Assembly: GCA_002293685.1 (NCBI GenBank)
Contig: DBDS01000002.1
Span: 31,742-95,741 of the forward strand
Source: Patescibacteria group bacterium UBA926
Lineage (GTDB): Bacteria; Patescibacteriota; Doudnabacteria; UBA920
Direction of reading: 5' to 3'
Length of the DNA stretch: 64,000 nt
This document shows, one piece after another, positions 25,201-47,672 of this stretch. Every line of letters begins with the position of its first letter. Within the stretch, counting starts at the first letter, position 1. Below the pieces are notes generated by a model that had not been told where the DNA came from, did not search any database, and saw nothing but the letters and a program-made list of their open reading frames with translations. Position numbers and translations under genes: made by a program.

Positions 25201-25323
25201 AAGAAGTCAGATTTTTAGGCTAGTCCGCGAAGGAATCTGCGGCTACTTCGAGCCGTAGTGAAAGCTACGGTGAGAAGTAACGCAAAGATTCCGACAAAGG
25301 AATAGTCAAAAATCTGACTTCTT
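25201..25323. repeat. MITE-like element with a perfect 16-bp TIR enclosing a family-2 hairpin core
   Basis: aagaagtcagattttt ... aaaaatctgacttctt; internal gagccgtag-tgaaag-ctacggtgag. Confidence 0.6.
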
Positions 25324-25326
25324 CAC

Positions 25327-26604
25327 CTACTTCTGATAGTCGTGCATTGTGAGCTGTGCCTCTACTTGTTTGATACTTTCAATAACAACAGCAACAACAA
25401 TCAACAATCCAGCACCACCGAAAGTCATAGCCTGAGTTCCTGTCCAAGACTGAACAATAAACGGTAATACAGCAATTAGACCTAAGAACAAAGAGCCTGG
25501 TAAAGTAATGCGGTTCAATACTTTGTATAAGTAATCGGCAGTCATTCGACCTGGACGGATACCAGGAACAAAACCACCGCTGCGTTGCATGTTTTCAGAT
25601 ACTTCATCAGGGTTGATAACAATATTTGTGTAGAAGAAAGTAAACATTACAACCAGTACGAAGTAAGCTACACCGTACCAAATTCCTTGGTTATTGGTAA
25701 ATTCAATTGCTTTCTGAGCCCATTCAGCAACCAAAGGAGTTTTTGCATTTACAAAGAACTGCGCAATTATGGCTGGGAATAACAATAAGGAAATTGCAAA
25801 AATAATTGGAATTACACCGGCTTGGTTCAGGCGAAGTGGTAAATGTGAACTAACTCCGCCAACCTGCCTGTCCCCTTGCATACGCTTAGCATAAGTTACC
25901 GGAACATTACGCTGAGCTTCCGTCACCAGAACAACTCCGATAATTACCAATAATCCAGCAATCGCGAAACCAATCAAAGTTGGTAGCTGACTCGGATCAT
26001 ACAATTCAATGAATGAGCCGATTGAAGTTGGGATTTGAGCAACAATACCTGCGAAAATGACCAAGGAAATACCGTTACCAATTCCATATTCAGAAATAAT
26101 TTCACCAATCCACATAACAAGCATCGTACCTGCAGTCACAGCCAATAGAGTTAAGAACCATTGGAAAGGACTAAATACACCAAGCAATTCTGCACCACCC
26201 TGGCTTTGTAATAAGCGGATAGTTCCAAAACCAGATAGAATCGCTAAAGGAATAGTTAAGAAACGAGTATATTGGTTGATCTTCTGACGACCAGCTTCTC
26301 CATTCTCTTTCTGTAATTCTTTTAGAGCAGGAATAATCATTGTTAGCAACTGCATAATGATCGACGCGGTAATATAGGGACCGACACCAAGAAGTGCAAT
26401 TGAGAAGTTACTTAGACCACCACCAGAAAAGATGTTTAGTAAACTGAGGAACTGATTGCCTTCAAAGAAAGAGCGAAGCCCTTCGACACTGATTCCAGGA
26501 ATTGGGATATGAGCTAAAACACGAGTCATTAACAACAAAATCAAAACCATGAAGATTTTCTTCCGAAGGTCTTTAGTTTTCCAAATTAAGCTGAGTTTAT
26601 TCAT
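25327..26604 (-). CDS. secY: preprotein translocase subunit SecY
   Basis: Ten-TM SecY sequence; lies directly downstream of rplO. Confidence 0.95.
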   Translation of the reverse strand: MNKLSLIWKTKDLRKKIFMVLILLLMTRVLAHIPIPGISVEGLRSFFEGNQFLSLLNIFSGGGLSNFSIALLGVGPYITASIIMQLLTMIIPALKELQKENGEAGRQKINQYTRFLTIPLAILSGFGTIRLLQSQGGAELLGVFSPFQWFLTLLAVTAGTMLVMWIGEIISEYGIGNGISLVIFAGIVAQIPTSIGSFIELYDPSQLPTLIGFAIAGLLVIIGVVLVTEAQRNVPVTYAKRMQGDRQVGGVSSHLPLRLNQAGVIPIIFAISLLLFPAIIAQFFVNAKTPLVAEWAQKAIEFTNNQGIWYGVAYFVLVVMFTFFYTNIVINPDEVSENMQRSGGFVPGIRPGRMTADYLYKVLNRITLPGSLFLGLIAVLPFIVQSWTGTQAMTFGGAGLLIVVAVVIESIKQVEAQLTMHDYQK

Positions 26605-26626
26605 ATATTGATATTATACACATAAA

Positions 26627-26731
26627 GTCATCCTGAGCGAAGTCCACCTAAATCTCGTAGAGATTTTGAACGGACGAAGCGAAGGATCTCATTTTGAGAT
26701 CCTTCATCCCGTAAGCGGGATTCAGGATGAC
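26627..26731. repeat. family-1 palindromic element (composite, nested palindromes)
   Basis: gtcatcctgagcg...ggattcaggatgac termini; inner gaaggatctc/gagatccttc and aaatctc-gta-gagattt. Confidence 0.65.
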
Positions 26732-26742
26732 ATTGTATTCAT

Positions 26743-27177
26743 TTATTTAACTGAACCGCCAGCCGCTTCAATAGCAGTTTTTGCGGTAGCTGAAGCTGGT
26801 ACTTTCACAACAAGTTTCTTTTTGAGTCCACCCTTAAGTAGTTTTACTCTACCAACAGTGTTGGCGATAATACCATGCTTTTTAAGAGTTGAGATTGTAA
26901 CTTCATCACCATCATTGAAAGCATTTAGCGCATCAAGTTTGATAGCTGTAGCATTTTCGTGAATGCTCTTGAAACCACGACTCTTTGGAACTTGGCGAAC
27001 TAATGGTTGACGACCACCTTCGAAAGCCGCTGGTGATTTGGAATGACCAGTACGAGACTTTTGTCCTTTTGCTCCACGAGTAGAATAGGTTCCATGACCA
27101 CTTCCAAGACCACGGCCGACAACTTTGCGTCGCTTTGTGGATTTCGGATGACGTTTTAAATCATGTAATTTAATCAT
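26743..27177 (-). CDS. rplO: 50S ribosomal protein L15
   Basis: GRGLGSGHGTYSTRGAKGQKSR motif. Confidence 0.95.
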   Translation of the reverse strand: MIKLHDLKRHPKSTKRRKVVGRGLGSGHGTYSTRGAKGQKSRTGHSKSPAAFEGGRQPLVRQVPKSRGFKSIHENATAIKLDALNAFNDGDEVTISTLKKHGIIANTVGRVKLLKGGLKKKLVVKVPASATAKTAIEAAGGSVK

Positions 27178-27188
27178 ATATTTTATGT

Positions 27189-27245
27189 TGTCATCCTGAA
27201 CGCAGTGAAGGATCTTTTAGATTCTTCGCTTCGCTCAGAATGACA
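27189..27245. repeat. family-1 palindromic element (canonical copy)
   Basis: tgtcatcctgaacgcagtgaaggatct...agattcttcgcttcgctcagaatgaca. Confidence 0.65.
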
Positions 27246-27250
27246 TTCCT

Positions 27251-27751
27251 TTACTTGCGGCTTGCCATTATTTCTTCTTTACTGCGCATCACCTTAAATG
27301 CTTCGAACGCAGCACGAACATTGTTAGTCTTGTTGTTTGAACCAATCATTTTACTGATTACGTTCTTTACACCAGCAAGGTCTAAAACTGAACGAACCGC
27401 ACCACCGGCGATTACACCAGTACCCTGACGAGCAGGCATCATCAACAATTTACTAGACTTATATTTAATCTTAACTTCATGAGGAATAGTATCTTTTACC
27501 AAAGGAACTGTAATCATGTTTTTCTTCGCAGCATTTACTGCTTTGTTTACAGCTTCTGTTACGTCCATACCTTTGCGAAGACCAATACCGATTTTACCTT
27601 TGTGATCGCCAATTACAACTAAAGCACGGAAACGCATACGCTTACCGCCACCTGTAACACGAGTTACACGTTTAATCTCAACCACTTTCTGGTCAAATTC
27701 ACGAGGTTGTTGAGGGCCACGATTATTCGGTTTTTTAGATTTCTTATCCAT
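27251..27751 (-). CDS. rpsE: 30S ribosomal protein S5
   Basis: GGGKRMRFRALVVIGD and dsRBD/S5 C-terminal domain. Confidence 0.95.
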   Translation of the reverse strand: MDKKSKKPNNRGPQQPREFDQKVVEIKRVTRVTGGGKRMRFRALVVIGDHKGKIGIGLRKGMDVTEAVNKAVNAAKKNMITVPLVKDTIPHEVKIKYKSSKLLMMPARQGTGVIAGGAVRSVLDLAGVKNVISKMIGSNNKTNNVRAAFEAFKVMRSKEEIMASRK

Positions 27752-27799
27752 AATTATCTATTAAATATTAAACTTTCTCGTTTGTTCAAGCACGAGGCA

Positions 27800-27862
27800 T
27801 TTTCCGAGGAACTTTGGAACCGTAGTCTACCTACGGTGACAAAGTTCCGAGGAAAATAACAA
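27800..27862. repeat. family-2 hairpin element
   Basis: ttccgaggaactttg-gaaccgtag-tctac-ctacggtgac-aaagttccgaggaaaataac. Confidence 0.6.
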
Positions 27863-27867
27863 AGTGA

Positions 27868-27936
27868 TTGGACAAACCCGAAGGGTGAAGTTTGGTTGAA
27901 AGTCTGAATTTACTTCAAACTGAGACCAAACGAACG
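27868..27936. repeat. family-3 structured element (copy 1 of 3)
   Basis: ttggacaaacccgaagggtgaagtttggttgaaagtctgaatttacttcaaactgagaccaaacgaacgag. Confidence 0.65.
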
Positions 27937-27949
27937 AGGGAGTTTCATC

Positions 27950-28306
27950 TTAAAATTGAAGTCCAGCTTCGCGAGCCGCTTCAGCTAATGCTTTAACACG
28001 ACCATGATATCGATAACCACCGCGGTCAAACACGACAGCTTTTACTCCAGCAGCTTGTGCCTTAGTCGCGATTTCCTTACCGACACTTTGAGCTTGAGCA
28101 GTTTTATCGCCAGTAGCTTTCAAGTCTTTAGTAGAAGCTGCTACCAAAGTTTTACCGGCCACATCATCGATTAACTGAACAACCATATGAGCATTAGAAC
28201 GGAACACGCTTAAACGAGGACGTTCTTGAGTGCCACTGATGACACTGCGAACACGACCCTTGCGGAGTTTATGCTTTAATTGTTTATGCTTCTGTAAATT
28301 AGTCAT
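27950..28306 (-). CDS. rplR: 50S ribosomal protein L18
   Basis: [20 protein letters not shown] motif. Confidence 0.95.
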
Positions 28307-28350
28307 ATATTATCACATATTAGATTATCGCAATTTTCATGGTTGAGGCG

Positions 28351-28440
28351 AATTCGCGAAGCCGGCGAGTACCGAGCGAGTCGTAGTAGAACTACGGTGA
28401 GCAAGGAACGGAGCCGGCGACAAAGAAGTCGCTCAAAGCC
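28351..28440. repeat. family-2 hairpin element
   Basis: gaattcgcgaagccggcgag...gagtcgtagtagaactacggtgagcaagg...gacaaagaagtcgc. Confidence 0.6.
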
Positions 28441-28498
28441 ACTTTGCAAGTCCGGACTTGCTCCGGGCTAAAAAGTGGCGGCCATGGAAATTGCGGCC

Positions 28499-29080
28499 CT
28501 ACTTTCCTACAGCTTTAACAACTTTACCAGCCTTGCGCAAAATATTTTCGTCGCTGTATCGAATACCTTTACCTTTGTAAGGCTCCGGCTTCTTCAACTC
28601 GCGAATATTTGCAGCAACTTGACCAACTAAATGTTTGTCGATGCTAGTTAAGGTAATTGTTGTTTGATACTGCTGAATAGTAACTTTAGCTGGTTGCTTT
28701 TCTGCCTTTACTTCTACGCCATCAGGGATTGGAAAATCGATTGGGTGAGAAAAACCAAGGTTCAAAACTAAATCTTTACCACGAACTTCTGCCTTAAATC
28801 CAACGCCTACTACATCTAGTTCTTTAGTGAAACCGGTGGTTAAACCATCTACCATATTCTGAATCAACGAACGGAACAAACCCCAAAGAGCCTTTTCGCG
28901 CTTATCTTCTTTTTTAGCAACGTCTACCAATACTTCATTGTCTTTGACTTCAACTTTTACTTTTGGGTGAATTTCCAAAGTCAAAGTACCCTTACTACCC
29001 TTTACGGTAAGTACGTTGTCTTTCAATTCAGCAGTGATGCCGTTAGAAAGAATTACTGGTTTTTTTCCGATTCTTGACAT
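28499..29080 (-). CDS. rplF: 50S ribosomal protein L6
   Basis: MSRIGKKPV start and two L6 domains. Confidence 0.95.
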   Translation of the reverse strand: MSRIGKKPVILSNGITAELKDNVLTVKGSKGTLTLEIHPKVKVEVKDNEVLVDVAKKEDKREKALWGLFRSLIQNMVDGLTTGFTKELDVVGVGFKAEVRGKDLVLNLGFSHPIDFPIPDGVEVKAEKQPAKVTIQQYQTTITLTSIDKHLVGQVAANIRELKKPEPYKGKGIRYSDENILRKAGKVVKAVGK

Positions 29081-29181
29081 AGTGTCGTTATTAAAACTGA
29101 ATAAATAATGTTATCAAAACTTTTCCGTTTGTCCAAGTACGGCACGGATTGGTCGGGCAAAGCCCGCCCATCGCGTTCAGG

Positions 29182-29244
29182 CCATTTTCCGAGGAACTCT
29201 GGAGCCGTACTTTAGTTACGGTGACAGGGTTCCGAGGAAAATAA
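29182..29244. repeat. family-2 hairpin element
   Basis: ttccgaggaactctg-gagccgtac-tttagt-tacggtgac-agggttccgaggaaaataac. Confidence 0.6.
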
Positions 29245-29252
29245 CGAAGTAA

Positions 29253-29322
29253 TTGGACAAACCCGAAGGGTGAAGTTTGACTGAAAGTCTGAATTTACTT
29301 CAGACTGAAGTCAAACGAGCGG
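29253..29322. repeat. family-3 structured element (copy 2 of 3)
   Basis: ttggacaaacccgaagggtgaagtttgactgaaagtctgaatttacttcagactgaagtcaaacgagcg. Confidence 0.65.
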
Positions 29323-29333
29323 TAAAGTTTTAC

Positions 29334-29726
29334 CTACCAAATCTGACAAACAACTTCTCCACCAACACGATCTTTGCGGGCTTGTTTGTCTGTTAATAAT
29401 CCTTTCGAAGTTGAAACAACTGTAATACCGAAGCCACCATTAGTGCGAGGAATCTTTCCAACTGGCATGTAGATACGTTGTCCCGGAGTGCTAACACGCT
29501 TGATACCGGTAATCACAGGACTGCCTGTTTGAGCATACTTAAGATTGACTTGGAGCATTTTCACACGTCCAGGCAATTCGTTCACGCCAGATAGAAAACC
29601 TTCTTCATGAAGAACTTTTGCTAAGCTGTGCTTAAACTTTGAGTATGGCATTACCAAATCTTGCTTGCCAGCTGCAAGCGCATTACGGATTCGGGTTAAC
29701 ATGTCGGAAATTGGATCGGTATACAT
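29334..29726 (-). CDS. rpsH: 30S ribosomal protein S8
   Basis: MYTDPISDMLTRIRNA start. Confidence 0.95.
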   Translation of the reverse strand: MYTDPISDMLTRIRNALAAGKQDLVMPYSKFKHSLAKVLHEEGFLSGVNELPGRVKMLQVNLKYAQTGSPVITGIKRVSTPGQRIYMPVGKIPRTNGGFGITVVSTSKGLLTDKQARKDRVGGEVVCQIW

Positions 29727-29742
29727 GATAGTTAGTTGGTTA

Positions 29743-29937
29743 TTACCAAGAGGCCTTTGTTACGCCAGGGATTTCTCCACGGCTTGCTAATTCTCTAAAA
29801 CAGATACGGCATAAAGAAAAATCTCTCATAAAAGCTGCTTTACGACCGCACTTCAAACAACGCCTGATTACTCGAGTTGAGAACTTCGGGTTTTTTAAAC
29901 TGCGATTAGCTTTTGCGATTAAGGATTTCTTTGCCAT
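29743..29937 (-). CDS. rpsN: 30S ribosomal protein S14, Zn-binding type (64 aa)
   Basis: [12 protein letters not shown]... with the CLKCGR...CRIC zinc ribbon. The true start is the internal ATG at 29935-29937; the 101-aa track ORF is an upstream artefact. Confidence 0.9.
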
Positions 29938-29974
29938 ATGGTTGCTTGCTAAAGCGGTTTCAAATTCGGGGCAA

Positions 29975-30045
29975 GTTCGAGGCATTTCCCGAAGGGCGCT
30001 GGAGCCGTAATAAATGTTACGGTGACAGAGCCCTGAGGGAAATAA
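29975..30045. repeat. family-2 hairpin element
   Basis: catttcccgaagggcgctggagccgtaataaatgttacggtgacagagccctgagggaaataacaaag. Confidence 0.55.
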
Positions 30046-30075
30046 CAAAGAAATTGTCCGAATTTGGAAGCGCGA

Positions 30076-30615
30076 TTAATCTTTAAATGGGAACTTCATT
30101 GCCTTTAATAAGGCGTATGCTGGTTCATCTTTTCCAGCTGTAGTTGCAATCGTGACTTGAAGTCCGAAAATATGTTCGATTGCATCTTGAGAGATTTCTG
30201 GGAAAACCATGTGTTCTTTTAGACCAAGGTTGTAGTTTCCACGACCGTCGAAACCTTTTCGAGATACTCCGCGGAAATCTTTCACGCGAGGGAGACCAAT
30301 GCTGATCAATTTATCTAAGAATTCGTACATTCTTTGTCCACGCAAGGTAACGGTCATACCAACCACTTGCTGTTCACGAACTTTAAATCCAGCGATAGAT
30401 TTACGAGCCTTAGTTTCAACTGGTGCTTGACCTGCCAACTTTGTGAAGTCCTTTTTCAAAGATTCCATGAAGCGGTTATCCTTAAGGTACTTACCCACCC
30501 CAATGTTGAGGTTGATTTGCTTCACTTTAGGAACGGCCATCACGTTAGTGTAACCGAATTGCTCTTTCAAAGCAGGTGCAATCTGTTTATTATATTGTTC
30601 TTGTAAACGATTCAT
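30076..30615 (-). CDS. rplE: 50S ribosomal protein L5
   Basis: L5 sequence, 179 aa. Confidence 0.95.
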   Translation of the reverse strand: MNRLQEQYNKQIAPALKEQFGYTNVMAVPKVKQINLNIGVGKYLKDNRFMESLKKDFTKLAGQAPVETKARKSIAGFKVREQQVVGMTVTLRGQRMYEFLDKLISIGLPRVKDFRGVSRKGFDGRGNYNLGLKEHMVFPEISQDAIEHIFGLQVTIATTAGKDEPAYALLKAMKFPFKD

Positions 30616-30636
30616 AAGTGTAATTAAATACTTCTA

Positions 30637-30963
30637 TTAAACAGCTTTACCGCTTTTCTTAGCAATGCGTTGCTTGGTTCCGTTCTCTAAAATTTCATAA
30701 CCAACGCGAGTTGGTTTACCAGAACTTGGATCGATCAACATTACTTTGGATGAGGACATAGGACTTGCAAAACTCACCTTTTGAGAAACGCGCTGACGAG
30801 TACCACGTGGACGTTCATACTTAGTGTGAACATTCACATTCTCGACAACAACTTTATGGTCATCAGGAAGAACACGCAAAACTTTTCCAGTCTTACCTTT
30901 ATCTTTACCTGATAATACCTTTACGGTATCGCCTTTCTTAATTTTGAGCTTTACTTGTGTCAT
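30637..30963 (-). CDS. rplX: 50S ribosomal protein L24
   Basis: KOW motif KKGDTVKVLSGKDKGKTGKV. Confidence 0.95.
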   Translation of the reverse strand: MTQVKLKIKKGDTVKVLSGKDKGKTGKVLRVLPDDHKVVVENVNVHTKYERPRGTRQRVSQKVSFASPMSSSKVMLIDPSSGKPTRVGYEILENGTKQRIAKKSGKAV

Positions 30964-30974
30964 ATGTTTTCTAC

Positions 30975-31063
30975 GTCATCCTGAGTCCCTCGACGAGCTC
31001 GGGATAAACTCCGCAACTATGTTTCGGAGCCTGTCCTGAGCCTGCGAAGGATTCGGCATGACA
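30975..31063. repeat. family-1 palindromic element (variant)
   Basis: gtcatcctgagtccctcgacgagctcggg...ggagcctgtcctgagcctgcgaaggattcggcatgaca. Confidence 0.55.
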
Positions 31064-31069
31064 AATTAT

Positions 31070-31441: not shown

Positions 31442-31455
31442 AAATTTTGATTAGT

Positions 31456-31516
31456 TGTCATCCTGAACGCAGTGAAGGATCTATGGTTGAGATTCTTCGC
31501 TCCGCTCAGAATGACA
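31456..31516. repeat. family-1 palindromic element
   Basis: tgtcatcctgaacgcagtgaaggatct...gagattcttcgctccgctcagaatgaca. Confidence 0.65.
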
Positions 31517-31531
31517 GAGGTCAATTATTAA

Positions 31532-31774
31532 TTATACCTTCTTAAGTACAACGAATCTCTTGTCTTTGCTAATCGGACGACTTGATTCGATAATAACTTT
31601 ATCACCAATCTCACAAGTGTTTTCTTCGTCGTGTGCTTTGTAGCGGTAAGACTTAGTGTAGCTCTTGTGGTATTTTGGATGACGCTTAACTAAATCAACT
31701 TTAACAACAACGGTTTTATCCATTTTGTTAGAGATGACTGTTCCTGTAAGTTGTTGTTTAGTAGCTGTTGTCAT
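31532..31774 (-). CDS. rpsQ: 30S ribosomal protein S17
   Basis: S17 OB-fold sequence. The start is the internal ATG at 31772-31774 ([11 protein letters not shown]...); the track ORF is extended upstream. Confidence 0.9.
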
Positions 31775-31812
31775 ATAAATGTCTTGTCGTTCTGACACGT
31801 ACACCGCAGAAC

Positions 31813-31886: not shown

Positions 31887-31887
31887 A

Positions 31888-32512: not shown

Positions 32513-32525
32513 ATGTTTATTAGTC

Positions 32526-32576
32526 TGTCATCCTGAGCGCAAGCAAGAATTTTTTCTTGGCTGTGCTCAGAATGAC
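32526..32576. repeat. family-1 palindromic element
   Basis: tgtcatcctgagcgcaagcaagaattttttcttggctgtgctcagaatgaca. Confidence 0.65.
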
Positions 32577-32599
32577 AGCGGATTGATAGATGATTAAAC

Positions 32600-33253: not shown

Positions 33254-33271
33254 AATTTGAGAGGTGAATTC

Positions 33272-33400
33272 TGTCATCCTGAACGCAGTGAAGGATCTTT
33301 ACTTGAGATTCTTCTCGGAGTTTATCCCCGCGCAGGCGGGGACTCAGAATGACAGTTAGTGGAGATCCCTGCTTTCGCAGGGACGGCACAAAGTGCCGAT
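33272..33400. repeat. family-1 palindromic element plus adjacent extra hairpin
   Basis: tgtcatcctgaacgcagtgaaggatct...ccccgcgcaggcggggactcagaatgaca, then ggagatccctgctttcgcagggac. Confidence 0.6.
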
Positions 33401-33404: not shown

Positions 33405-33971
33405 TTACTTTTGTAAGTTTTCTGGAGAAGTTTTTACTTTAGAATCAGTCGCTTCGTTTTCGCGGTGAACTTCTTTCACTTTAGGTTCAGGCTTAAGTTT
33501 AGAAACAGATTCAGCTTCAGCTTTACCAAGTTGACCTTCTTGAGTCTGGATTGGTTCAGCTTTCTTCTTAGCCTTTGGAAGCTTAGCAGAACTTTTCGGT
33601 TTTGCATCGCGCTCTTCAAGCACTACGTTCACATGTGCCATTTTGCGTCGGATAACGAATGCGCTACCACGGGCTCTTGGGAACATACGCTGAAGTACAG
33701 GACCCATGTCAGTTGTAATACTCTTGATAAATAATTGCTCACCTTTTAATGAAAAATTATTCTCAGCATTTGCTACAGCCGAACGCAATAATTTGGATAC
33801 CATTCCAGCAGCCTTTTTATTGGTGAACTGGAGTTGAACCAAAGCGTCTGCAACGCGCATGTTCTTCACCAAGTTTGTAACTAGGCGAATCTTGCGAGGA
33901 GAGATGCGGAGATTGCGTGCATGAGCTCTCACTTGAGGCTTGTTATTCGGTTGTGCGACTTTTTCTGCCAT
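33405..33971 (-). CDS. rplV: 50S ribosomal protein L22 with long C-terminal K/E-rich extension
   Basis: L22 core (RISPRKIRLVTNLVKNMRVADALVQLQF) plus about 70 extra C-terminal residues. Confidence 0.9.
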   Translation of the reverse strand: MAEKVAQPNNKPQVRAHARNLRISPRKIRLVTNLVKNMRVADALVQLQFTNKKAAGMVSKLLRSAVANAENNFSLKGEQLFIKSITTDMGPVLQRMFPRARGSAFVIRRKMAHVNVVLEERDAKPKSSAKLPKAKKKAEPIQTQEGQLGKAEAESVSKLKPEPKVKEVHRENEATDSKVKTSPENLQK

Positions 33972-33982
33972 ATGATTTCATC

Positions 33983-34044
33983 GTTATCCTGAGCACAGCG
34001 AAGGATCTTTCTAGAAAAGACACTTCACAGCACTCAGCATAACA
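33983..34044. repeat. family-1 palindromic element (variant)
   Basis: gttatcctgagcacagcgaaggatct...cacttcacagcactcagcataac. Confidence 0.5.
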
Positions 34045-34331: not shown

Positions 34332-34354
34332 ATATATAGATAAATTTTCTATCC

Positions 34355-34415
34355 TGTCATCCTGAACGCAGTGAAGGATCTATAATTGAGATTCTTCGCT
34401 CCGCTCAGAATGACA
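34355..34415. repeat. family-1 palindromic element
   Basis: tgtcatcctgaacgcagtgaaggatctataattgagattcttcgctccgctcagaatgaca. Confidence 0.65.
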
Positions 34416-34430
34416 GAGAGAATTGTATAA

Positions 34431-35273
34431 TTAACGCTTCTTCACGCGACGCTTAACAATAAACTTACCAGACGGTTTCTTCTTATCGCGGGTTTTCACA
34501 CCGAGCGCATGCTTACCCCAAGGAGTCTTAGGATATTTCAAACCGATTGAGTTACTACCTTCACCACCACCATGAGGGTGATCTACTGGGTTCATAACTT
34601 TACCTCGAACGCTTGGTCTCCATCCCATGTGGCGCTTACGACCAGCTGTTCCGATTCGTACGTTCATCCAGTCTGAGTTAGACATCGAGCCGATTGTAGC
34701 GCAAGCAGTTTCGCGAACTTTACGGATTTCACCAGAAGGAAGTTTAAGGAATGCATAACCACCTTCTAAGTTTTGCAACAACACACTAGCACCTGCACTG
34801 CGAGCTAACTTACCACCATGACCAGGAATTAATTCCACATCATGGATGAAGCTTCCAACTGGAATGCTTGCAAGTGACATTCTGTTACCAGGATGGATTT
34901 CGGCTGTTTCACTATACACTACTTTATCGCCAACTTTTAAGCCAGCAGGTGTTAAGATGAAACGCTTAACTCCATCGTTGTAAGTAATAAGAGAAATAAA
35001 TGCGGTGCGAGTTGGATCGTATTCAACTGTTTTCACTGTACCAGGAATGTTCTTTCGGTCGGCACGGTTGAAATCAACAATACGAACTTTCTTGTTAGCA
35101 CCACCACCACGGTGTCGAACAGTAATCTTACCAGAGTTATTACGACCGGCGTTCTTCGCTTTGCTCATTATCAAAGACTTCGGAGTTTTCTCAGTCTTTT
35201 TTAAAACGGAATAATCGGTCACACTTTGCTTGCGACGTCCCGGTGTAGTTGGTTTGTATACTTTTACTGCCAT
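34431..35273 (-). CDS. rplB: 50S ribosomal protein L2
   Basis: L2 sequence with GRNNSGKITVRHRGGG. Confidence 0.95.
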   Translation of the reverse strand: MAVKVYKPTTPGRRKQSVTDYSVLKKTEKTPKSLIMSKAKNAGRNNSGKITVRHRGGGANKKVRIVDFNRADRKNIPGTVKTVEYDPTRTAFISLITYNDGVKRFILTPAGLKVGDKVVYSETAEIHPGNRMSLASIPVGSFIHDVELIPGHGGKLARSAGASVLLQNLEGGYAFLKLPSGEIRKVRETACATIGSMSNSDWMNVRIGTAGRKRHMGWRPSVRGKVMNPVDHPHGGGEGSNSIGLKYPKTPWGKHALGVKTRDKKKPSGKFIVKRRVKKR

Positions 35274-37557: not shown

Positions 37558-37621
37558 TGTCATCCTGAGGCCAAAGGCCGAAGGATCTCGAATGAGATTC
37601 TTCGCTTCGCTCAGAATGACA
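37558..37621. repeat. family-1 palindromic element
   Basis: tgtcatcctgaggccaaaggccgaaggatctcgaatgagattcttcgcttcgctcagaatgaca. Confidence 0.65.
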
Positions 37622-40048: not shown

Positions 40049-40295
40049 TTGATGCCTTTCGAGCTATAAAAAGTTTTCAATTCTTGTCCCGAGATACCCT
40101 CGCTCCTTCCCCTATCGATGCGAGGAAAAAGAGAGGGTTTCTCTTTTTTTCACGTAGGAATCCAGAAACAAAAAGAGGTGAATTTATAGCGGTTAATTAT
40201 TATTTACCGTTATGTGCCGAAGTCGTTTGGCCAAGTTCGATACGAGCTTACTCGGGCCAAGCCCGAGTATCGCAAGCAGGAAAAAGTTGAGCAAG

Positions 40296-40335
40296 TTGCG
40301 AGCCGTACTAATAGTACGGTGAGCGACTAGCGGAA
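40296..40335. repeat. family-2 hairpin element
   Basis: gcgagccgtactaatagtacggtgagcgactagcgg. Confidence 0.55.
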
Positions 40336-40351
40336 ACTTTTGACAAAGAAA

Positions 40352-40422
40352 TTGGGCAAACCCGGAGGGCGAGTTTGATTGAAAGTCTGAATTTACTTCA
40401 GACTGAGATCAAACGAGCGACG
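40352..40422. repeat. family-3 structured element (copy 3 of 3)
   Basis: ttgggcaaacccggagggcgagtttgattgaaagtctgaatttacttcagactgagatcaaacgagcg. Confidence 0.65.
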
Positions 40423-40852: not shown

Positions 40853-40856
40853 TACA

Positions 40857-41249
40857 TTAAACCTTAAGTCGAATTAACTTACCTTTGCGTTTGACAATGT
40901 TTTTATAATCCCATTGGACTGTCTTTGATTCTTTCAACCAAAGTCTTAAATCCTTTAATTTGATTTCATCTGCTGAAGTGTAATTTTTTTGAGCAGCTTT
41001 AAAGCTTCCTTCTTTTTCTAGACCTTTGGCTTTAAAAGATTGCCCACTCCAGAATAATAATGTTACCCCAACTTTTCTTTTGGAATATCCAGCGACTGGA
41101 TTTCCTTCGATAAACCAAACTGGGCCGCCGTGCCAAAGTTTGCTTTCTGCTTTTTTGAGAGACTTATCGATTTCTTCGGCTAACTTTTTACTAATAGCTT
41201 TGTCTTCGCCTTTGAGCGCGTTGTTATATTTTTGAATGTCTTTGTGCAT
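40857..41249 (-). CDS. DUF1801 (YdhG/YdeI)-like protein
   Basis: Shape and motifs resemble DUF1801. The start is probably the internal Met (MHKDIQKY...), which avoids overlap with the upstream gene. Confidence 0.45.
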   Translation of the reverse strand: MHKDIQKYNNALKGEDKAISKKLAEEIDKSLKKAESKLWHGGPVWFIEGNPVAGYSKRKVGVTLLFWSGQSFKAKGLEKEGSFKAAQKNYTSADEIKLKDLRLWLKESKTVQWDYKNIVKRKGKLIRLKV

Positions 41250-41253
41250 AGAT

Positions 41254-41694
41254 TTAAATATCATCAAAGTTTGGTTTGATTTCTTCGTCGTCCATTGAGA
41301 CGCGCGGCGCTCCCAAACGACCATAATTTGGATCCATCACTTCTTCGCGCGGATCGTAATCAATTTCTTCAATGCGAGATGCTGCGGGATGAGACACAAA
41401 TAAATTCCGCGCTCTATCTTGAAGAATCTGGCCGATTGGCTCAGGCATTTTAATTGGCCCACCGATTGTCTCTAAATTACTCTCTCCCAAATCCATATTC
41501 TCACGGAGTTGAGCTTCAAGAATTTCGCGATTGATTTTTTCTCTATCAACTTCTTCGACCTGTGGTTTTTCGGAACCACTCATTTTTCGATACTCTGCCT
41601 CACCAAGAAAAACACCTTTCACTTCCCCTTCACCATTAACAATCACCACTTTCCCCTGCTGGCCTGCTAAATTGATTAAGTCTTTGAGATTCAT
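41254..41694 (-). CDS. hypothetical protein with Phd/YefM-like N-terminal fold and long acidic tail
   Basis: N-terminus LKDLINLAGQQGKVVIVNGEGEVKGVFLGEAEYRKM resembles antitoxin Phd/YefM. No partner toxin is evident. Confidence 0.4.
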   Translation of the reverse strand: MNLKDLINLAGQQGKVVIVNGEGEVKGVFLGEAEYRKMSGSEKPQVEEVDREKINREILEAQLRENMDLGESNLETIGGPIKMPEPIGQILQDRARNLFVSHPAASRIEEIDYDPREEVMDPNYGRLGAPRVSMDDEEIKPNFDDI

Positions 41695-41747
41695 AATCGC
41701 ATCTTAGCACAAAAAAACCACCTTTTAGAAGATGGTCTTATTATTTA

Positions 41748-42968
41748 TTACATTTTGAGCTCAAACACCCTAACGGTAAAGCTTCCATCAATCATCTCAG
41801 TTCCCACGCATCGGATGAATTTGGTCAAAGGTACTACTGCACAAGCTCGAAATTCTCCACCAAATTCGAATGACTCTCGCCATGTCGCGCCACCATTTTC
41901 AGAAACTATAATACCGCCACCCTGTTCACCAATAAATACAGCGTTACCACCAGATGCGTAAATCAAACCATTATCCACGGGCAAGACATGTCTAATTGGC
42001 CATTTGGGTTCAGCTAATCTCTGTCCCCAGGTTGCTCCACCATCTGTAGTTTTATATATCCAGCCCTGTGATTCTGGAAAGATCATTCCTCCAGCTACGA
42101 AGCCTGTATTGTTGTCCAAAAACTGAACCGATCCATCAAATATTGGGTCAATTGATTCACGACACGACCAACCAAAACCGTTATTATTGCTAGTACAAAA
42201 ATTTATCCCTGCTAAATGTGCAGTTGTACCAATAAAACTGGATTGATGACCAAACCAACCATCTTGGTTAGGGTGAGGTTCAACTCGACGCAACTCGCTC
42301 GAACCACGACCATAAAATACCGAAGGGACTCCATCCACCACACTCATAGCTGGGCTGATTACATTACTACCATTCCCTACCACATCCATTAGCCAATCTT
42401 CATTAGACAATATTGACTTAGGGTTCCAGATTATACCACCATCATAAGAGCTATAAATGAATCCCTGTGAGGCATCAGAAGCATTGCTATAACCAGAAAC
42501 CATTAAGTGATTTCCAGGACCGAGGTATAATCCTGAAAAGAATTCGGGTGGATTATTGGTAGCTGTCCAAGAAACAATCCATGTACGTCCTCCATCAAGA
42601 GTCCGGTAAATATTTTTCTCAGTCAATAAGTAACCTCTATTTTGATCAACGAATACTATTCTTTGCGCAAAATTATCGCTTATACTGCTAATTAATTCCC
42701 AATCATCTTCACCCTTCTCAATATCAAGAGCTGGTACTTGAACGGCTCTCAAAGCACTCAGGTCTCTAAAAGCAGAAGCCTTCTGACCACCAGCAACACT
42801 AGCTGGGAAGATGGCCGTCACCACTTCCTCATCACCACCTTTTTGCGAAGCTGAACTCAATAATCCTCGCAAAGTGCCATTCTCAGCCAAAATCATGGTT
42901 GATACTAATACCAACACTGCCACACCAGCCAGGATAAAGGGTGATTTATTTTGTCGTTTTTGTTTCAT
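41748..42968 (-). CDS. exported BNR/Asp-box repeat protein (Ycf48-like / sialidase-like beta-propeller)
   Basis: Signal peptide; repeated DGGRTW, DGGIIW, DGGATWG and NGGATW Asp-box motifs. Confidence 0.7.
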   Translation of the reverse strand: MKQKRQNKSPFILAGVAVLVLVSTMILAENGTLRGLLSSASQKGGDEEVVTAIFPASVAGGQKASAFRDLSALRAVQVPALDIEKGEDDWELISSISDNFAQRIVFVDQNRGYLLTEKNIYRTLDGGRTWIVSWTATNNPPEFFSGLYLGPGNHLMVSGYSNASDASQGFIYSSYDGGIIWNPKSILSNEDWLMDVVGNGSNVISPAMSVVDGVPSVFYGRGSSELRRVEPHPNQDGWFGHQSSFIGTTAHLAGINFCTSNNNGFGWSCRESIDPIFDGSVQFLDNNTGFVAGGMIFPESQGWIYKTTDGGATWGQRLAEPKWPIRHVLPVDNGLIYASGGNAVFIGEQGGGIIVSENGGATWRESFEFGGEFRACAVVPLTKFIRCVGTEMIDGSFTVRVFELKM

Positions 42969-43053
42969 AAATATTGCTCAATTAAGATAAGTATAACATA
43001 AAACCGCCCTTTCGAGCGGTTTTTTATTTAGGTCCAAGTTTACAAGCACAGAG

Positions 43054-43896
43054 TTATTTAGATTTTTTCTGTATAAAAGTAATCTGTTCTGAACCGTCTT
43101 TTCTATCTAATCGATATATTTCCAATAGACCGTTTTCTCTTATTTCCACTAACTCGCCGAAATTACTTGTCAGGTTAAAAACTTGTCCGTTTTCTGGTTT
43201 TGTAATTTTGGGAGGTGGAATTATACCATCCGTATGATCTATATATTTCGCCATCATATTTGTTAAATCTGTAACATCAGGGTCCTGCTGACGCTTGATT
43301 TGGGTTTGATCACTTTGCCATGTCATATATTTCATACAGCTGTCAGTGCCATCCTTATACCTATAATCCAAACCTGAAGACCATCCCATATATTGACAAA
43401 GTAGCTTATTTCTCCAAAAGACATTACCGAAAACTGATGTTTTATCAAAGAGCGCACCATCATTAAAGATGAAAAGTGCATCAGTGATGTGCCCAGAATC
43501 AGGGATATGGCCGTAAGTCCCTAAGGCTAACACACCATAATCGGGATCATTAATTGTACAAAAATTCATGTATCCAACATATATAAAACACTCTTCAGAC
43601 TCATCCCCTGGCACAATACTAAAATTTAAAGCTCCGTTACTTTCCCAATTAGCTATTGCTCTAGTAAAATGTATGTCCCAACCTCTGGAAGCGCTATCTA
43701 AAAGTGCAACCTGGCCATGAGCCCAATGCGGTGATGGTTCTTCATTGGCACTTGAGCTTAATGGTTGCGGTGCATAAGAACTGTAATAGCGAACGTAGAC
43801 TAAACCTGCGGCGGCAGTTATCACGAATAGAGCAAGTAATAAATTGATTCTGTGCTTGGAATTCCATTTTTTTAGGAACTTTGACATATTTTTCAT
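43054..43896 (-). CDS. hypothetical membrane-anchored protein
   Basis: N-terminal TM helix; no recognised motifs. Confidence 0.45.
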   Translation of the reverse strand: MKNMSKFLKKWNSKHRINLLLALFVITAAAGLVYVRYYSSYAPQPLSSSANEEPSPHWAHGQVALLDSASRGWDIHFTRAIANWESNGALNFSIVPGDESEECFIYVGYMNFCTINDPDYGVLALGTYGHIPDSGHITDALFIFNDGALFDKTSVFGNVFWRNKLLCQYMGWSSGLDYRYKDGTDSCMKYMTWQSDQTQIKRQQDPDVTDLTNMMAKYIDHTDGIIPPPKITKPENGQVFNLTSNFGELVEIRENGLLEIYRLDRKDGSEQITFIQKKSK

Positions 43897-43999
43897 GAAT
43901 TATTTTAACTCACCTTAAGTATAAGTAAATGAGACTGAACGAAGAAATGACTTATCCACAAAAAAAACCGCCCCGAAGGGCGGTTTTTATAAACAGATA

Positions 44000-46123
44000 T
44001 TATTGCCCCTTACGAACATTCATGCCCGCGCGAGATTCAATAATATTAGCAGCAACATTTTTTGGAACTTCTTCGTAGTGATCGAATTCCATAATAGAAG
44101 ATGCTTGACCTTGGGTCATAGAGCGAAGTTGTGTCGCGTAACCAAACATTTCGGCTAGCGGTACAAAGGCAGTCACAACTTTGCGACCAGTGATATCTTC
44201 CATATCTTGTACTTTCGCGCGCTTAGAGTTCAAGTCACCGATAACGTCTCCCATGTTCGCTTCTGGGGTAGTTACTACAACTTTCATCACCGGTTCAAGT
44301 AGTACAGGATCACCTTTCTTGACGGCTTCTTGTAAACACTTGGATGCAGCAATTTTGAAAGCCATTTCCGAAGAGTCAACTTCGTGATAGCTACCATCAT
44401 AAACAGCAGCTCGGAAGTCTACTAATGGGTAACCAGCGATCACACCGTTAGCAGCAGATTCTTGAATACCTTTATCAATTGGCTTGATGTATTCTTTTGG
44501 AATTACACCACCCACAATCTCATCAACGAATTCATAACCCTTACCTTGTTCAAGAGGTTCAACACGCAAGTAAACGTGACCATATTGACCGCGTCCACCA
44601 GACTGACGAATATACTTTACTTCTGCTGTTGCAGTTTTCTTGAAAGATTCTTTGTAAGCAACTTCTGGCTTACCAACGTTCGCTTCAACTTTGAATTCTC
44701 GCTTCATACGATCGACAAGAATTTCCAAGTGAAGCTCGCCCATACCAGCAATAATAGTTTGCTGAGTTTCATCGTTGGAAGAAACTTTGAAAGTTGGATC
44801 TTCTTCCGCAAGCTTTTGCATCGCGATACCCATTTTTTCTTGGTCCGCTTTAGTCTTCGGTTCAATCGCCATCGAAATAACTGGATCAGCGAATTTAATC
44901 TTTTCTAATTCGATTGGAGAGTTCTCGGCACAAAGAGTGTCGGCTGTGATTGTGTCCTTTGGACCAACCAACGCACAAATGTCTCCGGCGAAAACCTCTT
45001 TTACTTCGTCACGTTGATCGGCGCGCATACGCACAATACGACCAACACGTTCACGGTTACCAGTACGACCGTTAAGTACGTAAGAACCAGCGGTCAAAGT
45101 TCCAGAGTAAACACGGAAGAAAGCAAGGCGTCCTACGAAAGGATCGGTTGCGATTTTGAAAGCAAGCGCTGTAAATGGTTCATCATCACTTGGATTGCGA
45201 AGTAGCTCTTCACCAGTTTTTGGATTGTGGCCTTTAACAGGACCCTTGTCCAAAGGAGATGGTAAGAAGTTTGTAACAGCATCGAGCAATGTGCGTACGA
45301 TAATTCCGCGACCATCACCACCGAATACAGGATAGAAGTCGCCGGATCGAGTAGCTTTACGAATGGCTTGTAAAATTTCCTCTTCGGAAAGTTCTTTACC
45401 TTCTAAGTATTTCTCCATTAACTCATCGTCAAACTCTACAATTTTTTCGATTAGTTCATGGCGGTATTTCTCGGCCTTTTCTTTCATATCAGCTGGAACT
45501 TCACCGATTGTAAATTCTTTGTCTGTGAAATCCTTATAAGTGTAAGACTTCATAGTTACTAAGTCGACAACACCAACAATGTCTTTTTCGAAACCAATCG
45601 GCAGTTGAACTGGAAAAGCGTTCTTGGTTAAGCGGTTATGAATTGAATCCAAAGACTTGTAGAAGTCGCCGCCAGTTTGGTTAATCTTATTGATGAAGCA
45701 CATGCGTGGTACGCCATACTTGTCGGCTTGGCGCCAGACAGTTTCGGATTGAGGTTCAACACCCATTTTACCGTCAAATACGGTAATCGCACCGTCGAGT
45801 ACGCGCAAAGAGCGCTCTACTTCTACTGTGAAGTCTACGTGACCTGGAGTGTCGATAATGTTGATTTTATATTCCTTGTCACCTTCAATCTTGATGTATT
45901 GAGGTTTCCAGTAACAAGTAACAGCCGCGGAAGTGATAGTGATACCACGTTCGCGTTCTTGTTCCATCCAATCGGTAACGGTTTCACCTTCGTGAACTGC
46001 ACCGATCTTGTGGATCATACCGGTGTTGTACAAAATACCTTCGGTAGTTGTAGTTTTGCCGGCGTCGATGTGAGCGATAATCCCGATATTACGGGTCGCT
46101 TCTATTGGATATTCTCTGGGCAT
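44000..46123 (-). CDS. fusA: elongation factor G
   Basis: [20 protein letters not shown] and NKMD motifs; 707 aa. Confidence 0.97.
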
Positions 46124-46129
46124 GTTAAT

Positions 46130-46158
46130 TTGAATAAATACTAATTTTTAAATATAAT
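46130..46158 (+). promoter_or_regulatory. promoter-like TTGAAT-N17-TATAAT
   Basis: tTTGAATaaatactaatttttaaaTATAATtg, upstream of the 46177 ORF. Confidence 0.5.
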
Positions 46159-46176
46159 TGAATTAAGGAGGTGGAG

Positions 46177-46398
46177 ATGGTACTGGTTAAAGGCAAAATT
46201 CGACAAATGGGCTCTGAGGAATGGGAATCATTCGAAGAAAGTGTCGAACCCAGGATTGATACCAAACCTGAGAACATGCGTAGACAAATGAAAATGCATT
46301 TTCATTTGGTAGATGGCGAGGAGATCGAAATCGAATCGATCATATCTCATGCTGTTATTGCGTTCAGTAATGAACCGCAAACAGAGATTAGCTTTTAG
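46177..46398 (+). CDS. orphan 73-aa acidic hypothetical protein between fusA and rpsG
   Basis: AGGAGG 6 nt upstream of the ATG; own promoter; the stop lies in the loop of a plus-strand-specific terminator. Confidence 0.5.
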   Translation: MVLVKGKIRQMGSEEWESFEESVEPRIDTKPENMRRQMKMHFHLVDGEEIEIESIISHAVIAFSNEPQTEISF

Positions 46399-46420
46399 CT
46401 GGTCTCTTTTTTATTTTCTC
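46384..46420 (+). terminator. rho-independent terminator (plus-strand specific, has U.G pairs)
   Basis: agagattagc-tttta-gctggtctct followed by tttttatttt. Confidence 0.55.
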
Positions 46421-46968
46421 TTATTTCCGAAACGGGCGAAGTGAGCAAATGCTTTGTTTGCTTCAGCCATACGGTGAGTATCATCGCGCTTCTTCACAGC
46501 AGTTCCCTGCTTGTTGAACGCATCCATGATTTCTTGCGCAAGCTTTTGCGCCATAGGAGCGCCTTTGCGTGAACGCGCTGCAGCAATCATCCATTTCATA
46601 CCTAATGCTGTGCGACGTGGCTCTTGCACTTCCATAGGAACTTGGTAGTTTGAACCACCAATGCGACGACCTTTAATTTCCATAATTGGAGATACATTTT
46701 TCAATGCGATATCAAAAATCTGGCGAGGGTCGGTAATTTTTGCATCTGCAACTTCAGCAACAGAACCATCTTGTTCTTTGCTAGCTGGTGCAGAATTTTT
46801 AGACATCTTTTCTTCAACGATATCTAGCGCAGTGTAGAAAATTTTCTGTGAAGTTGTCTTCTTACCGCGTTCCATCAAATAGTTGATGAATTTTGCATAC
46901 TTAACACTGCTGAACTTTGGATCTGGTTCAGGTACGTGCTTTTCAAAACTTCTTGCTCTTCGTGGCAT
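46411..46968 (-). CDS. rpsG: 30S ribosomal protein S7
   Basis: MPRRARSFEKHVPEPDPKF start. Confidence 0.95.
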   Translation of the reverse strand: MPRRARSFEKHVPEPDPKFSSVKYAKFINYLMERGKKTTSQKIFYTALDIVEEKMSKNSAPASKEQDGSVAEVADAKITDPRQIFDIALKNVSPIMEIKGRRIGGSNYQVPMEVQEPRRTALGMKWMIAAARSRKGAPMAQKLAQEIMDAFNKQGTAVKKRDDTHRMAEANKAFAHFARFGNKRK

Positions 46969-47049
46969 CTTAGTTTTTCCTTTCAGAATTCCCGGAAGCG
47001 AAGCTATCCGGGATCTAGACCCCGGCTCTTCGGCCGGGTATACTTTTTT

Positions 47050-47475
47050 CTAAGCGGCGGCTGATGGACGCTTAGTTCCATACTTTGAACGAGAGCGTTT
47101 TCGACCGTCAACGCCTAGGGTGTCCAATTTACCACGAACAATGTGGTAGCGCACACCAGGTAAATCTTTTACACGACCACCGCGGATCATTACCACACTG
47201 TGTTCCTGTAAATTGTGACCAACACCAGGAATGTACGCGAGTACTTCCATGCCGTTAGTTAATTTAATCTTGGCTACTTTACGCAAAGCCGAGTTCGGCT
47301 TCTTTGGAGTAGTTGTATAAACTTTTAGACAAACCCCTCGCATGAACGGGCTACCTGTCTTGATGAACAATGTCTTGTTCTTGATTAAGTTCTGACGGCG
47401 TTGTAGGGCCGGAGACTTACTCTTGGTTTGGGCAAGTTTTCTTGGCTTGCGAACCAACTGGTTAATAGTAGGCAC
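47050..47475 (-). CDS. rpsL: 30S ribosomal protein S12
   Basis: [13 protein letters not shown] start and the [11 protein letters not shown] region. Confidence 0.97.
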
Positions 47476-47543
47476 TTCTTTGACCTTTCGTGGGATGACA
47501 CGTCCCTATTAATTTTTTACTAAGCTACTTATGTGATTGAGGT

Positions 47544-47672
47544 GAATTCGCGAAGAAATACGCGGCTATTTCGAGCCGTACTAAAGGTACGGTGAGAAAT
47601 AACGTAAGTATTTCGACAAAGAATTCGCCCAAAGCTTTATGTAAGTCCAAACTTGCTTTGGACTGCATAAAG
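47544..47672. repeat. family-2 hairpin element plus adjacent nested hairpin
   Basis: gaattcgcgaagaaatacgcggctatttcgagccgtactaaaggtacggtgagaaataacgtaag...gacaaagaattcgccc, then ctttatgtaagtccaaacttgctttggactgcataaag. Confidence 0.6.

Follow-up and report, generated by a model that had tools for sequence, protein, structure and literature searches.

REP and REPIN elements, which are moved by RAYT (TnpA-REP), are short, extragenic, non-autonomous imperfect palindromes that occur in multiple copies and form long hairpins; they are often found inside operons and near terminators, and their copy number varies between relatives (PMC3116915). TIGR arrays, which are also known from the candidate phyla radiation (CPR), are regular tandem arrays of stem-loops located beside a gene for a Tas (Nop-domain) protein, and the loops of their units are variable spacers flanked by conserved boxes (PMC12045711). 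Here we describe the GA-rod, an imperfect palindrome of 85-125 nucleotides (nt) present in seven copies in a 64,000-nt stretch of contig DBDS01000002.1 of Patescibacteria group bacterium UBA926 (this whole stretch is referred to below as the window, and positions are counted from its first letter). An earlier note on this DNA had described a hairpin with tandem G.A pairs at seven places; this hairpin is only the tip of the rod, whose geometry is fixed. The GA-rod is an old, diverse, cross-phylum family without a catalogued counterpart, and our preferred reading, to which we give a probability of roughly 0.55, is that of a non-autonomous interspersed palindromic repeat colonising the spacers of ribosomal-protein and elongation-factor operons.

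Integron attC sites and the end hairpins of the IS200/IS605 insertion sequences (IS) are single-stranded DNA (ssDNA) hairpins that are recognised by structure, and small dispersed repeats of Nostocaceae (SDR4-6) were reportedly described by Elhai et al. in 2008. By analogy, the GA-rod may work like REP/REPIN elements, miniature inverted-repeat transposable elements (MITEs), attC sites or IS200-type hairpins, yet it seems to depart from each of these in defining features.

Seven GA-rods in the translation operons of the window

The window is, judging from its sequence, part of a Candidatus Doudnabacteria-like CPR/Patescibacteria genome; its L6 shares 90% identity with a protein of Candidatus Doudnabacteria. 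All genes in the 64 kb are encoded on the minus strand, and the translation genes follow the order rpsL-rpsG-fusA ... tuf-rpsJ ... rplE-rpsN-rpsH-rplF-rplR-rpsE-rplO-secY. The window was searched, unfiltered and on both strands, with a covariance model trained on 35 copies of the GA-rod, 32 of which came from other genomes. Exactly seven matches were returned, all on the plus strand, with scores of 50-72 bits and E <=3e-11, and four of these seven copies had not been part of the training set. The runner-up in the window scored 13.5 bits (E 0.42). The seven copies reported earlier were thus recovered, and no others. The sequences GAGCCGTA and TACGGTGAG occurred 8 and 6 times in the window, against 0.98 and 0.23 expected, and neither count was reached by any shuffle. 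Each of the seven lies between genes, in antisense orientation to the genes on either side. The neighbours previously assigned to them were broadly right: the copies lie downstream of secY, in the L18-S5, L6-L18, S8-L6 and L5-S14 spacers, and upstream of tuf and rpsL.

25220-25305, plus strand: copy 1; CGCGAA/GACAAAG loop type; 57 bits
25201-25323, plus strand: whole rod of copy 1 including the outer 16-bp stem; begins 3 nt past the secY stop codon
27787-27870, plus strand: copy 2, L18-S5 spacer; CGAGGC/AACAAAG type, with A-U replacing the G.U; 71.8 bits
28349-28431, plus strand: copy 3, L6-L18 spacer; CGCGAA/GACAAAG type, core GUCGUAG; 52.6 bits, outside the training set
29172-29255, plus strand: copy 4, S8-L6 spacer; 50 bits
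29972-30056, plus strand: copy 5, L5-S14 spacer; 68.5 bits; full rod about 29954-30074
40273-40354, plus strand: copy 6, upstream of tuf; GCAGGA/GACAAAG; 55.2 bits
47543-47627, plus strand: copy 7, between an M50-type peptidase gene and rpsL; CGCGAA/GACAAAG type; 63.5 bits, outside the training set
27889-27937, 29274-29322 and 40372-40420, plus strand: hairpin X, accompanying the rod in copies 2, 4 and 6; repeat family D5

Copy 1 folds at -65.7 kcal/mol (z -10.3), and copy 5 at -67.5 kcal/mol, compared with -48.4 on the opposite strand. Copies 2 and 4 are each one arm of a larger multibranch unit, which is closed and about 180 nt long for copy 2 (within 27752-27949) and about 215 nt long for copy 4 (within 29081-29333; -103 kcal/mol, z -9.1). 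These units of 180-215 nt in two spacers fold with z of -9 to -10, and the whole unit recurs at three sites: copy 6 is followed, as are copies 2 and 4, by a CCCGGAGGG hairpin and hairpin X (repeat families D5 and D6). Hairpin X carries the purine loop of the rod in flipped form, with UGA in its 5' arm and GAG in its 3' arm; its stems show compensatory changes between its copies. Copies 1 and 7 are 78% identical, and all three of their stem differences are compensated.

Copy 5 is intergenic because the true start of S14, which is of the short form in the window, is the MAK near 29934. Open reading frame (ORF) calls cross the rods here and elsewhere: a 101-aa 'S14' is called at 29743-30048, the real protein from MAK having about 63 aa, and a 69-aa ORF call (47525-47734) lies over copy 7. 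The public gene calls for the contig disagree likewise on S14 (80 versus 101 aa).

Architecture and covariation of the rod

At the seven sites the core reads C-GAG-CCGUAN-loop-N'UACGG-UGA-G, a sequence with a G.U and two G.A pairs. The copies thus contain the helix that was first described, with its closing tandem G.A and adjacent G.U, and the copy at 27817 shows the replacement of the G.U by A-U. On the 5' side the rod consists of an outer stem, a loop half (C-N-A-G-G-C or C-G-C-G-A-A), 18 nt, GA and GCCGUAN; from the apex onward it continues with a loop of 4-7 nt, N'UACGGU, GA, 18-20 nt, A-A-C-N-A-A-G or G-A-C-A-A-A-G, and the outer stem. The apical 7-bp helix G.U-CCGUA-N, closed by tandem G.A, is nearly invariant. 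The 18-nt arms are free in sequence and keep their pairing; they are usually interrupted by a second loop of variable position (GA/GA, AA/GNA or GA/GNA). Spacing was measured on 128 pattern matches, 42 of which have the 5' loop motif at exactly 18 nt from the core; the 3' motif peaked at 19 nt. The outer stem is often CA-GA-UG on both arms, which makes a further tandem G.A. In the outer asymmetric purine loop, covariation is seen between the base that ends the 5' half and the one that begins the 3' half: the combination is (C,A) 33 times and (A,G) 8 times. The motifs AAUAAC(R)AAG and GACAAAG, which had been seen downstream of the hairpin and taken for single-stranded, are indeed conserved, but they are not free single strand: they form the 3' half of the asymmetric internal loop, the 5' half of which (CGAGGC or CGCGAA) is found exactly 18 nt upstream of the core. 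Nor did the likeness to k-turns hold, since the loops are either GA/GA, which is symmetric, or GA/GNA, which has a bulge of 1 nt, and in no copy does a 3-nt bulge stand beside the G.A pairs.

Covariation was scored on 43 copies from about 35 genomes. The loop motifs and the exact core pattern had served to pick these copies, which in part builds in the invariance of these elements; the stems had played no role in the choice. The structure used in the test was taken from the same sequences. Pairs were counted on segments in register from either anchor because alignment of full-length rods with MAFFT misplaced gaps, the position of the second loop being variable. Paired cells amounted to 82.3%, against 60.6% in shuffles, and changes on both sides were observed in 20 of 28 pairs. 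The covariation score was 0.555, compared with 0.172 for shuffled sequences (the observed value was reached in none of 500) and 0.07-0.16 for slid controls. The compensatory changes and covarying flanking stems noticed in the first reading of this DNA are thus real and strong. Far from being identical and limited to one genome, the copies are diverse and occur in many genomes.

The structured strand and its orientation

The plus strand was more stable than the minus strand in all seven copies, by 2.3-19 kcal/mol with RNA parameters and by 2.6-8.9 kcal/mol with DNA parameters. Within the variable stems there were more G.U than A.C (45 versus 21, p = 0.004) and more G.A than C.U (108 versus 15, p = 1.5e-18). 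The excess of G.U and G.A, together with the stability, indicates that the purine (plus) strand is the one under structural constraint, either as RNA or as ssDNA. The sense strand folds well too, at -29 to -55 kcal/mol (z -2.7 to -8.3). The plus strand, antisense to the genes, had been proposed as the better folder, and our results agree; the proposal of an antisense RNA did not fare as well, as promoter-like and terminator-like sites around the copies were at chance level. The rods do not have the features of intrinsic terminators: a T-run follows only the outer hairpin around copy 1, and a terminator-like site was found at none of the five copies covered by the scan.

The purine strand was antisense in all of 15 independent translation-operon sites (P ~3e-5 if orientation were random), comprising the seven of the window, four new ones in loci L240 and L241, and those of L013, L015, L085 and L103. 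Elsewhere, copies between co-directional genes were antisense in 16 cases and sense in 7, or 34 and 14 by a cruder count. The plus strand of the window is C-rich throughout, which would make the purine strand the leading-strand template; the GC skew of the purine strand was negative in 35 of 51 copies, a figure confounded with gene direction. Two explanations of the antisense bias fit these data. It may stem from integration or survival specific to one replication strand, the stabler hairpin being kept off the lagging-strand template, or from selection against purine rods, with their GGAG- and GAGG-like strings, in abundant mRNAs.

Presence and absence among relatives

The operons of the window were compared with those of four close relatives (loci L238, L239, L240 and L241), whose L6 proteins are 87-92% identical to that of the window. 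The lengths of four spacers were as follows.

L6-L18 spacer: 192 nt in the window; 1-22 nt in all four relatives
L18-S5 spacer: 198 nt in the window; 11-20 nt in L238, L239 and L241; 98 nt in L240, with a different repeat
S8-L6 spacer: 253 nt in the window; 249 nt in L240, with an orthologous copy; 10-17 nt in L238, L239 and L241
L5-S14 spacer: 141 nt in the window; filled in L239 and L240; 9 nt in L238

Conversely, copies were found in the S10-L3, L4-L23 and L2-S19 spacers of L241 and in the L3-L4 spacer of L240, where the window has none; the central 60 nt of the L2-S19 copy of L241 are almost identical to the S8-L6 copy of the window. The presence or absence of copies at given spacers, their occurrence at new sites and the recurrence of whole units indicate an interspersed repeat that is mobile or was so recently. 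A distant set of 80 ribosomal-protein operon loci (586 kb; L6 43-59% identical, one short fragment 86%) contained no copy detectable by the pattern, and the model found none in the 22 long loci. The suggested tie to particular ribosomal-protein genes is not borne out, since relatives are empty at the same spacers or filled elsewhere and the distant loci are without copies. The orthologous loci also rule out a conserved ribosomal-protein leader, given the empty spacers in relatives and the antisense position of the structured strand. Conservation at one position near rpsL, considered because copies occur there in four genomes, was rejected: these copies lie in different spacers and represent independent insertions.

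Downstream of secY, the terminator hairpin is plain in L240, where a T-run comes after it, whereas in the window and L238 its apex holds a module of about 70 nt. This filled and empty pair shows a 7-nt AAGGAAT repeat, which fits a slippage deletion as well as a target-site duplication. Orthologous copies were then compared pair by pair.

secY copy, window versus L238: 4 double-compensated pairs, 1 broken
L5-S14 copy, window versus L239: 4 double-compensated pairs, 2 broken
L5-S14 copy, window versus L240: 1 double-compensated pair, 4 broken
Whole S8-L6 spacer, window versus L240: 0 double-compensated pairs, 6 broken

The L5-S14 copy of L240 is decayed, having lost its GA loops, and scores 16.8 bits. 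The balance of compensated and broken pairs indicates that pairing has been kept after insertion in some copies and not in all. Selection on the host or on the element is one possible cause of compensation in place; template switching between the arms of a quasi-palindrome would also produce it, without selection.

One public contig deserves mention here. L125 (ENA contig NODE_1576, 1874 nt) agrees with the window as far as the S8-L6 rod, beyond which its sequence is unrelated; its rod is closer to copy 2 (95%) than to copy 4. It is probably an assembly chimera formed at the repeat.

Distribution across phyla

A genome collection was scanned with the exact core pattern; the matches listed are a lower bound and do not give frequencies. 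These matches are no chance occurrences, and most of them share the loops and the spacing, with stems that are unrelated and yet complementary. The covariance model matched 74 times in the first 100 loci listed. Its best matches, among the loci listed, were in Saccharibacteria, Kaiserbacteria, Paceibacteria, Zambryskibacteria, Campbellbacteria and Peribacteria, and further matches were found in metagenome-assembled genomes labelled Deltaproteobacteria and in a Candidatus Acidoferrum contig. The Acidoferrum copy, with 71% GC, has the same loops, GC-rich stems and the CAGAUG outer stem. Several of the listed loci hold two or three copies per 8 kb. Weaker variants with shorter arms were detected in Burkholderiales, Myxococcota and Gammaproteobacteria. 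One such variant, with arms of about 14 nt, is common to Variovorax, Polaromonas, Xylophilus and Rhodoferax and reads GCGAGC...CGAGGACCG-GAGCCGTAC-loop-GTACGGTGA-GGACCGCAGG...GCGCAG (L011, L022, L027, L068, L076, L090, L096, L116 and L120). It includes GAGGACCGGAG, which matches the sarcin-ricin loop, probably by coincidence.

A phage origin was discarded: 32 matches to the pattern in viral contigs were without the family features and were read as chance occurrences, and they served as a negative control. A general enrichment near translation operons was likewise not retained, as only 4 of the 120 loci listed lie there, which is about chance. With Rfam 15 at gathering thresholds, the sole match in the window was the tRNA-Leu. 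When region 27700-30150, which holds four copies, was searched with all families, intron models included, no match was obtained at E <=5. No description of the GA-rod was found in the literature searched by sequence string and by topic.

Comparison with known elements

Like REP and REPIN, the GA-rod is a multi-copy extragenic imperfect palindrome (seven in the window, several per 8 kb elsewhere). However, the arms of REP elements are conserved in sequence within a genome and differ between RAYT lineages, whereas those of the GA-rod are free and covary, and it is the mismatched loops and the apical helix that are conserved across phyla. No RAYT or Y1 transposase was detected among the unknown proteins of the 64-kb window. 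The GA-rod resembles MITEs in its size (about 100-200 nt), its intergenic location and its variable presence among relatives, and inverted repeats (AAAACTTTNCCG...CGGNAAAGTTTT) stand at the ends of its larger composite units. It differs from them in that neither a demonstrable target-site duplication nor a related autonomous IS was found in the flanks, and in that its copies are highly diverged with the structure kept, where a MITE burst would give near-identical copies. A MITE-like repeat had been the fallback of the earlier note; the repeat nature comes closer to the truth, and the recent burst does not, the family being old, diverse and spread over phyla.

With attC sites and the IS200/IS605 hairpins the GA-rod has in common a conserved structure, variable stems and conserved unpaired or mismatched bases, as well as strand specificity and an orientation bias relative to replication. 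Unlike attC, it comes without an integrase or a cassette context and without RYYYAAC/GTTRRRY boxes, the outer motifs CNAGGC and AACNAAG not being complementary, and its flanks are ribosomal-protein genes. In contrast to the two different ends of IS200/IS605 elements, it has one central hairpin with symmetric arms, and its purine strand would lie on the leading-strand template. Domain V of the group II intron ai5-gamma reads GAGCCGUAU...GUACGGUUC, and the core strands GAGCCGUA and UACGGU of the GA-rod (for example 25250-25274) match its basal helix, with the G.U in the same place. However, the GA-rod is without the distal helix, the 2-nt bulge and the flanking intron domains of domain V, and its basal pairs are G.A and A.G; its apical helix has 7 bp and leads straight into a loop of 4-7 nt, and the Rfam search of four copies gave no match at E <=5. 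The resemblance is striking, and with the rest of domain V missing we treat it as a lead only.

TIGR units are also small stem-loops with internal loops occurring in CPR, with a similarity to RNAs of the box C/D type (PMC12045711). A TIGR-Tas array was nevertheless rejected, since GA-rods are dispersed 0.5-12 kb apart among housekeeping genes, with conserved loops and variable stems. As reported, SDR4-6 of Nostocaceae resemble the GA-rod as very small non-coding modules nested in hairpins, with no known enzyme, and are set apart from it as 21-27 nt repeats reported only in Nostocaceae, where the rod has 85-125 nt and occurs in CPR and other phyla (PMC4390886, PMC5861425). A cyanobacterial origin of the window and identity of the rod with the Nostoc SDRs were rejected: the genes are all on one strand, the HIP1 motif occurs just once, the window has a split transketolase gene and no L30, and its L6 points to Candidatus Doudnabacteria.

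Other repeats and genes of the window

A second repeat family, an ordinary palindrome TGTCATCCTGAACGCAGTGAAGGATCT...AGATTCTTCGCTCCGCTCAGAATGACA, is present in other spacers of the same operons. The L18-S5 spacer of L240 also holds a copy, and similar sequences are, we assume, common in many phyla. A third, purine-rich repeat, CCGAGTCGTCGGGC...GGAAAGGGGAGGCAG...GGGTTTTCCCCTCCAAAG, occupies S5-L15, S14-S8 and L15-SecY spacers of relatives and is absent from the window. The presence of these repeats in the spacers indicates that several element families colonise these operons.

26680-26800, 27178-27245, 31445-31543, 32515-32577, 33261-33359, 33971-34008, 34344-34442 and 37592-37621 of the window: second repeat family
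L238 5850-5974; L241 11457-11623; L240 9166-9358 and 12014-12205: third repeat

Directly downstream of secY are located a gene for an 852-aa protein (21963-24521) resembling type IV secretion coupling proteins (TrwB / T4SS-DNA_transf / DUF87) and one for a small protein of no recognised family (24558-24941); the coupling-protein gene is in the same place in all four close relatives. The fusA-tuf interval (40857-43896) contains three genes not related to translation, encoding a 155-aa DUF1801-like protein, a 406-aa BNR-repeat protein and a 280-aa protein of unknown type. The transketolase gene of the window is split, and L30 is absent. Two stretches, 56707-57730 (1024 nt) and 61732-62257 (526 nt), have neither a minus-strand ORF of at least 60 aa nor a GA-rod; the latter lies just above the tRNA-Leu gene (61607-61691).

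Discussion

If the GA-rod is a non-autonomous interspersed repeat, a factor acting in trans would read its invariant non-Watson-Crick loops at fixed spacing and gauge the distance from the apical hairpin to the outer loop. The element would be copied via a single-stranded intermediate of the purine strand, either ssDNA at the fork or RNA. The diversity of the stems, with pairing kept, would then reflect selection for foldability in the replicating lineage and partly in place.

Several observations weigh against this reading. A search of the unknown proteins encoded in the 64-kb window detected no transposase, reverse transcriptase or HUH enzyme, and no recurrent gene was seen up to about 4 kb from the 120 listed copies. 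A recurrent neighbouring transposase was sought by clustering 801 flanking ORFs all-against-all, which gave housekeeping families only; no autonomous IS partner was found in about 0.85 Mb of sequence flanking the listed copies, and the two copies that flank a single gene in L074 enclose rpoD. No clear target-site duplication was seen, the sites other than secY being too diverged to tell, and the state of the secY hairpin, which fits either insertion or deletion of the module of about 70 nt, cannot be polarised. The conservation of the loops across phyla is tighter than is usual for transposon ends. The active strand of an element of the IS200/IS605 type would be expected on the lagging-strand template, and the opposite was seen. 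Lastly, the double changes in place suggest a local constraint.

That constraint could belong to the host, and the rod to the operon mRNAs, in which sense hairpins would act in cis as intercistronic stabilisers, RNase III-type sites or extensions of terminators. Such an element would agree with the location of all copies in spacers of co-transcribed genes, with the good folding of the sense strand (-29 to -55 kcal/mol), with the position of copy 1 inside the hairpin that ends secY, ahead of a U-tract, and with the maintenance of pairing by double changes in orthologous copies. It is improbable in our view, because the same spacers are empty in relatives with 87-92% L6 identity and the 80 distant loci are without copies, because the G.U and G.A asymmetry favours the antisense strand (the sense loops would be U.C, C.U and A.C mismatches), because sense, convergent and divergent contexts are encountered in other genomes, and because the loops of the L5-S14 orthologue in L240 have decayed. 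The purine-strand asymmetry is better accommodated by the proposal of the earlier note that the plus strand is transcribed into structured, protein-binding antisense small RNAs with the tandem G.A loops as sites; the fixed geometry, the loops kept across phyla, the covarying non-canonical pair and the strong covariation can be counted in its favour. We nevertheless find it unlikely: promoter-like and terminator-like signals are no commoner than chance, seven antisense genes would be required inside essential operons, the copies are polymorphic among close relatives, Rfam gives no match even at E <=5 and, with no 3-nt bulge, there is no k-turn.

Both strands fold, and the core helix keeps its sequence as RNA helices seldom do; the rod might therefore act as a DNA cruciform in the supercoiled wake of transcription, binding topoisomerase, gyrase or a nucleoid protein, as has been proposed for REP/BIME. 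All seven copies do lie in the most transcribed block, which holds 60% of the intergenic bases (P ~0.02-0.03). As a test of enrichment this carries little weight and is confounded, since the repeats themselves make up much of the spacer sequence, and a cruciform would leave both the strand asymmetry of the mismatches and the strict orientation unexplained and has no known binding protein, so that we regard it as very unlikely.

Small palindromic repeats are well studied in Proteobacteria and hardly described in CPR/Patescibacteria. The GA-rod, whose design is kept across phyla and in hosts from about 32% to 71% GC, offers a tractable case of structure-based recognition, in which identity resides in non-Watson-Crick loops at fixed distances and not in the sequence of the arms. 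In a streamlined genome, the most conserved operons can have more than twice as much spacer DNA because of GA-rods. They also break assemblies, one public contig being chimeric at a copy, create spurious ORFs and would mislead searches for ribosomal-protein leader RNAs. More tentatively, the GA-rod may be the cis-acting handle of an unrecognised system common to CPR, Acidobacteriota, Myxococcota and Proteobacteria, in which a dedicated protein would read the tandem-G.A helix of fixed length and then copy, process or use the rod in the form of RNA or ssDNA. If this were true, the rod would represent a new class of structured nucleic acid, beyond another REP/MITE family. The partner enzyme, once identified, would provide a new ssDNA- or RNA-handling activity and explain the orientation rule.

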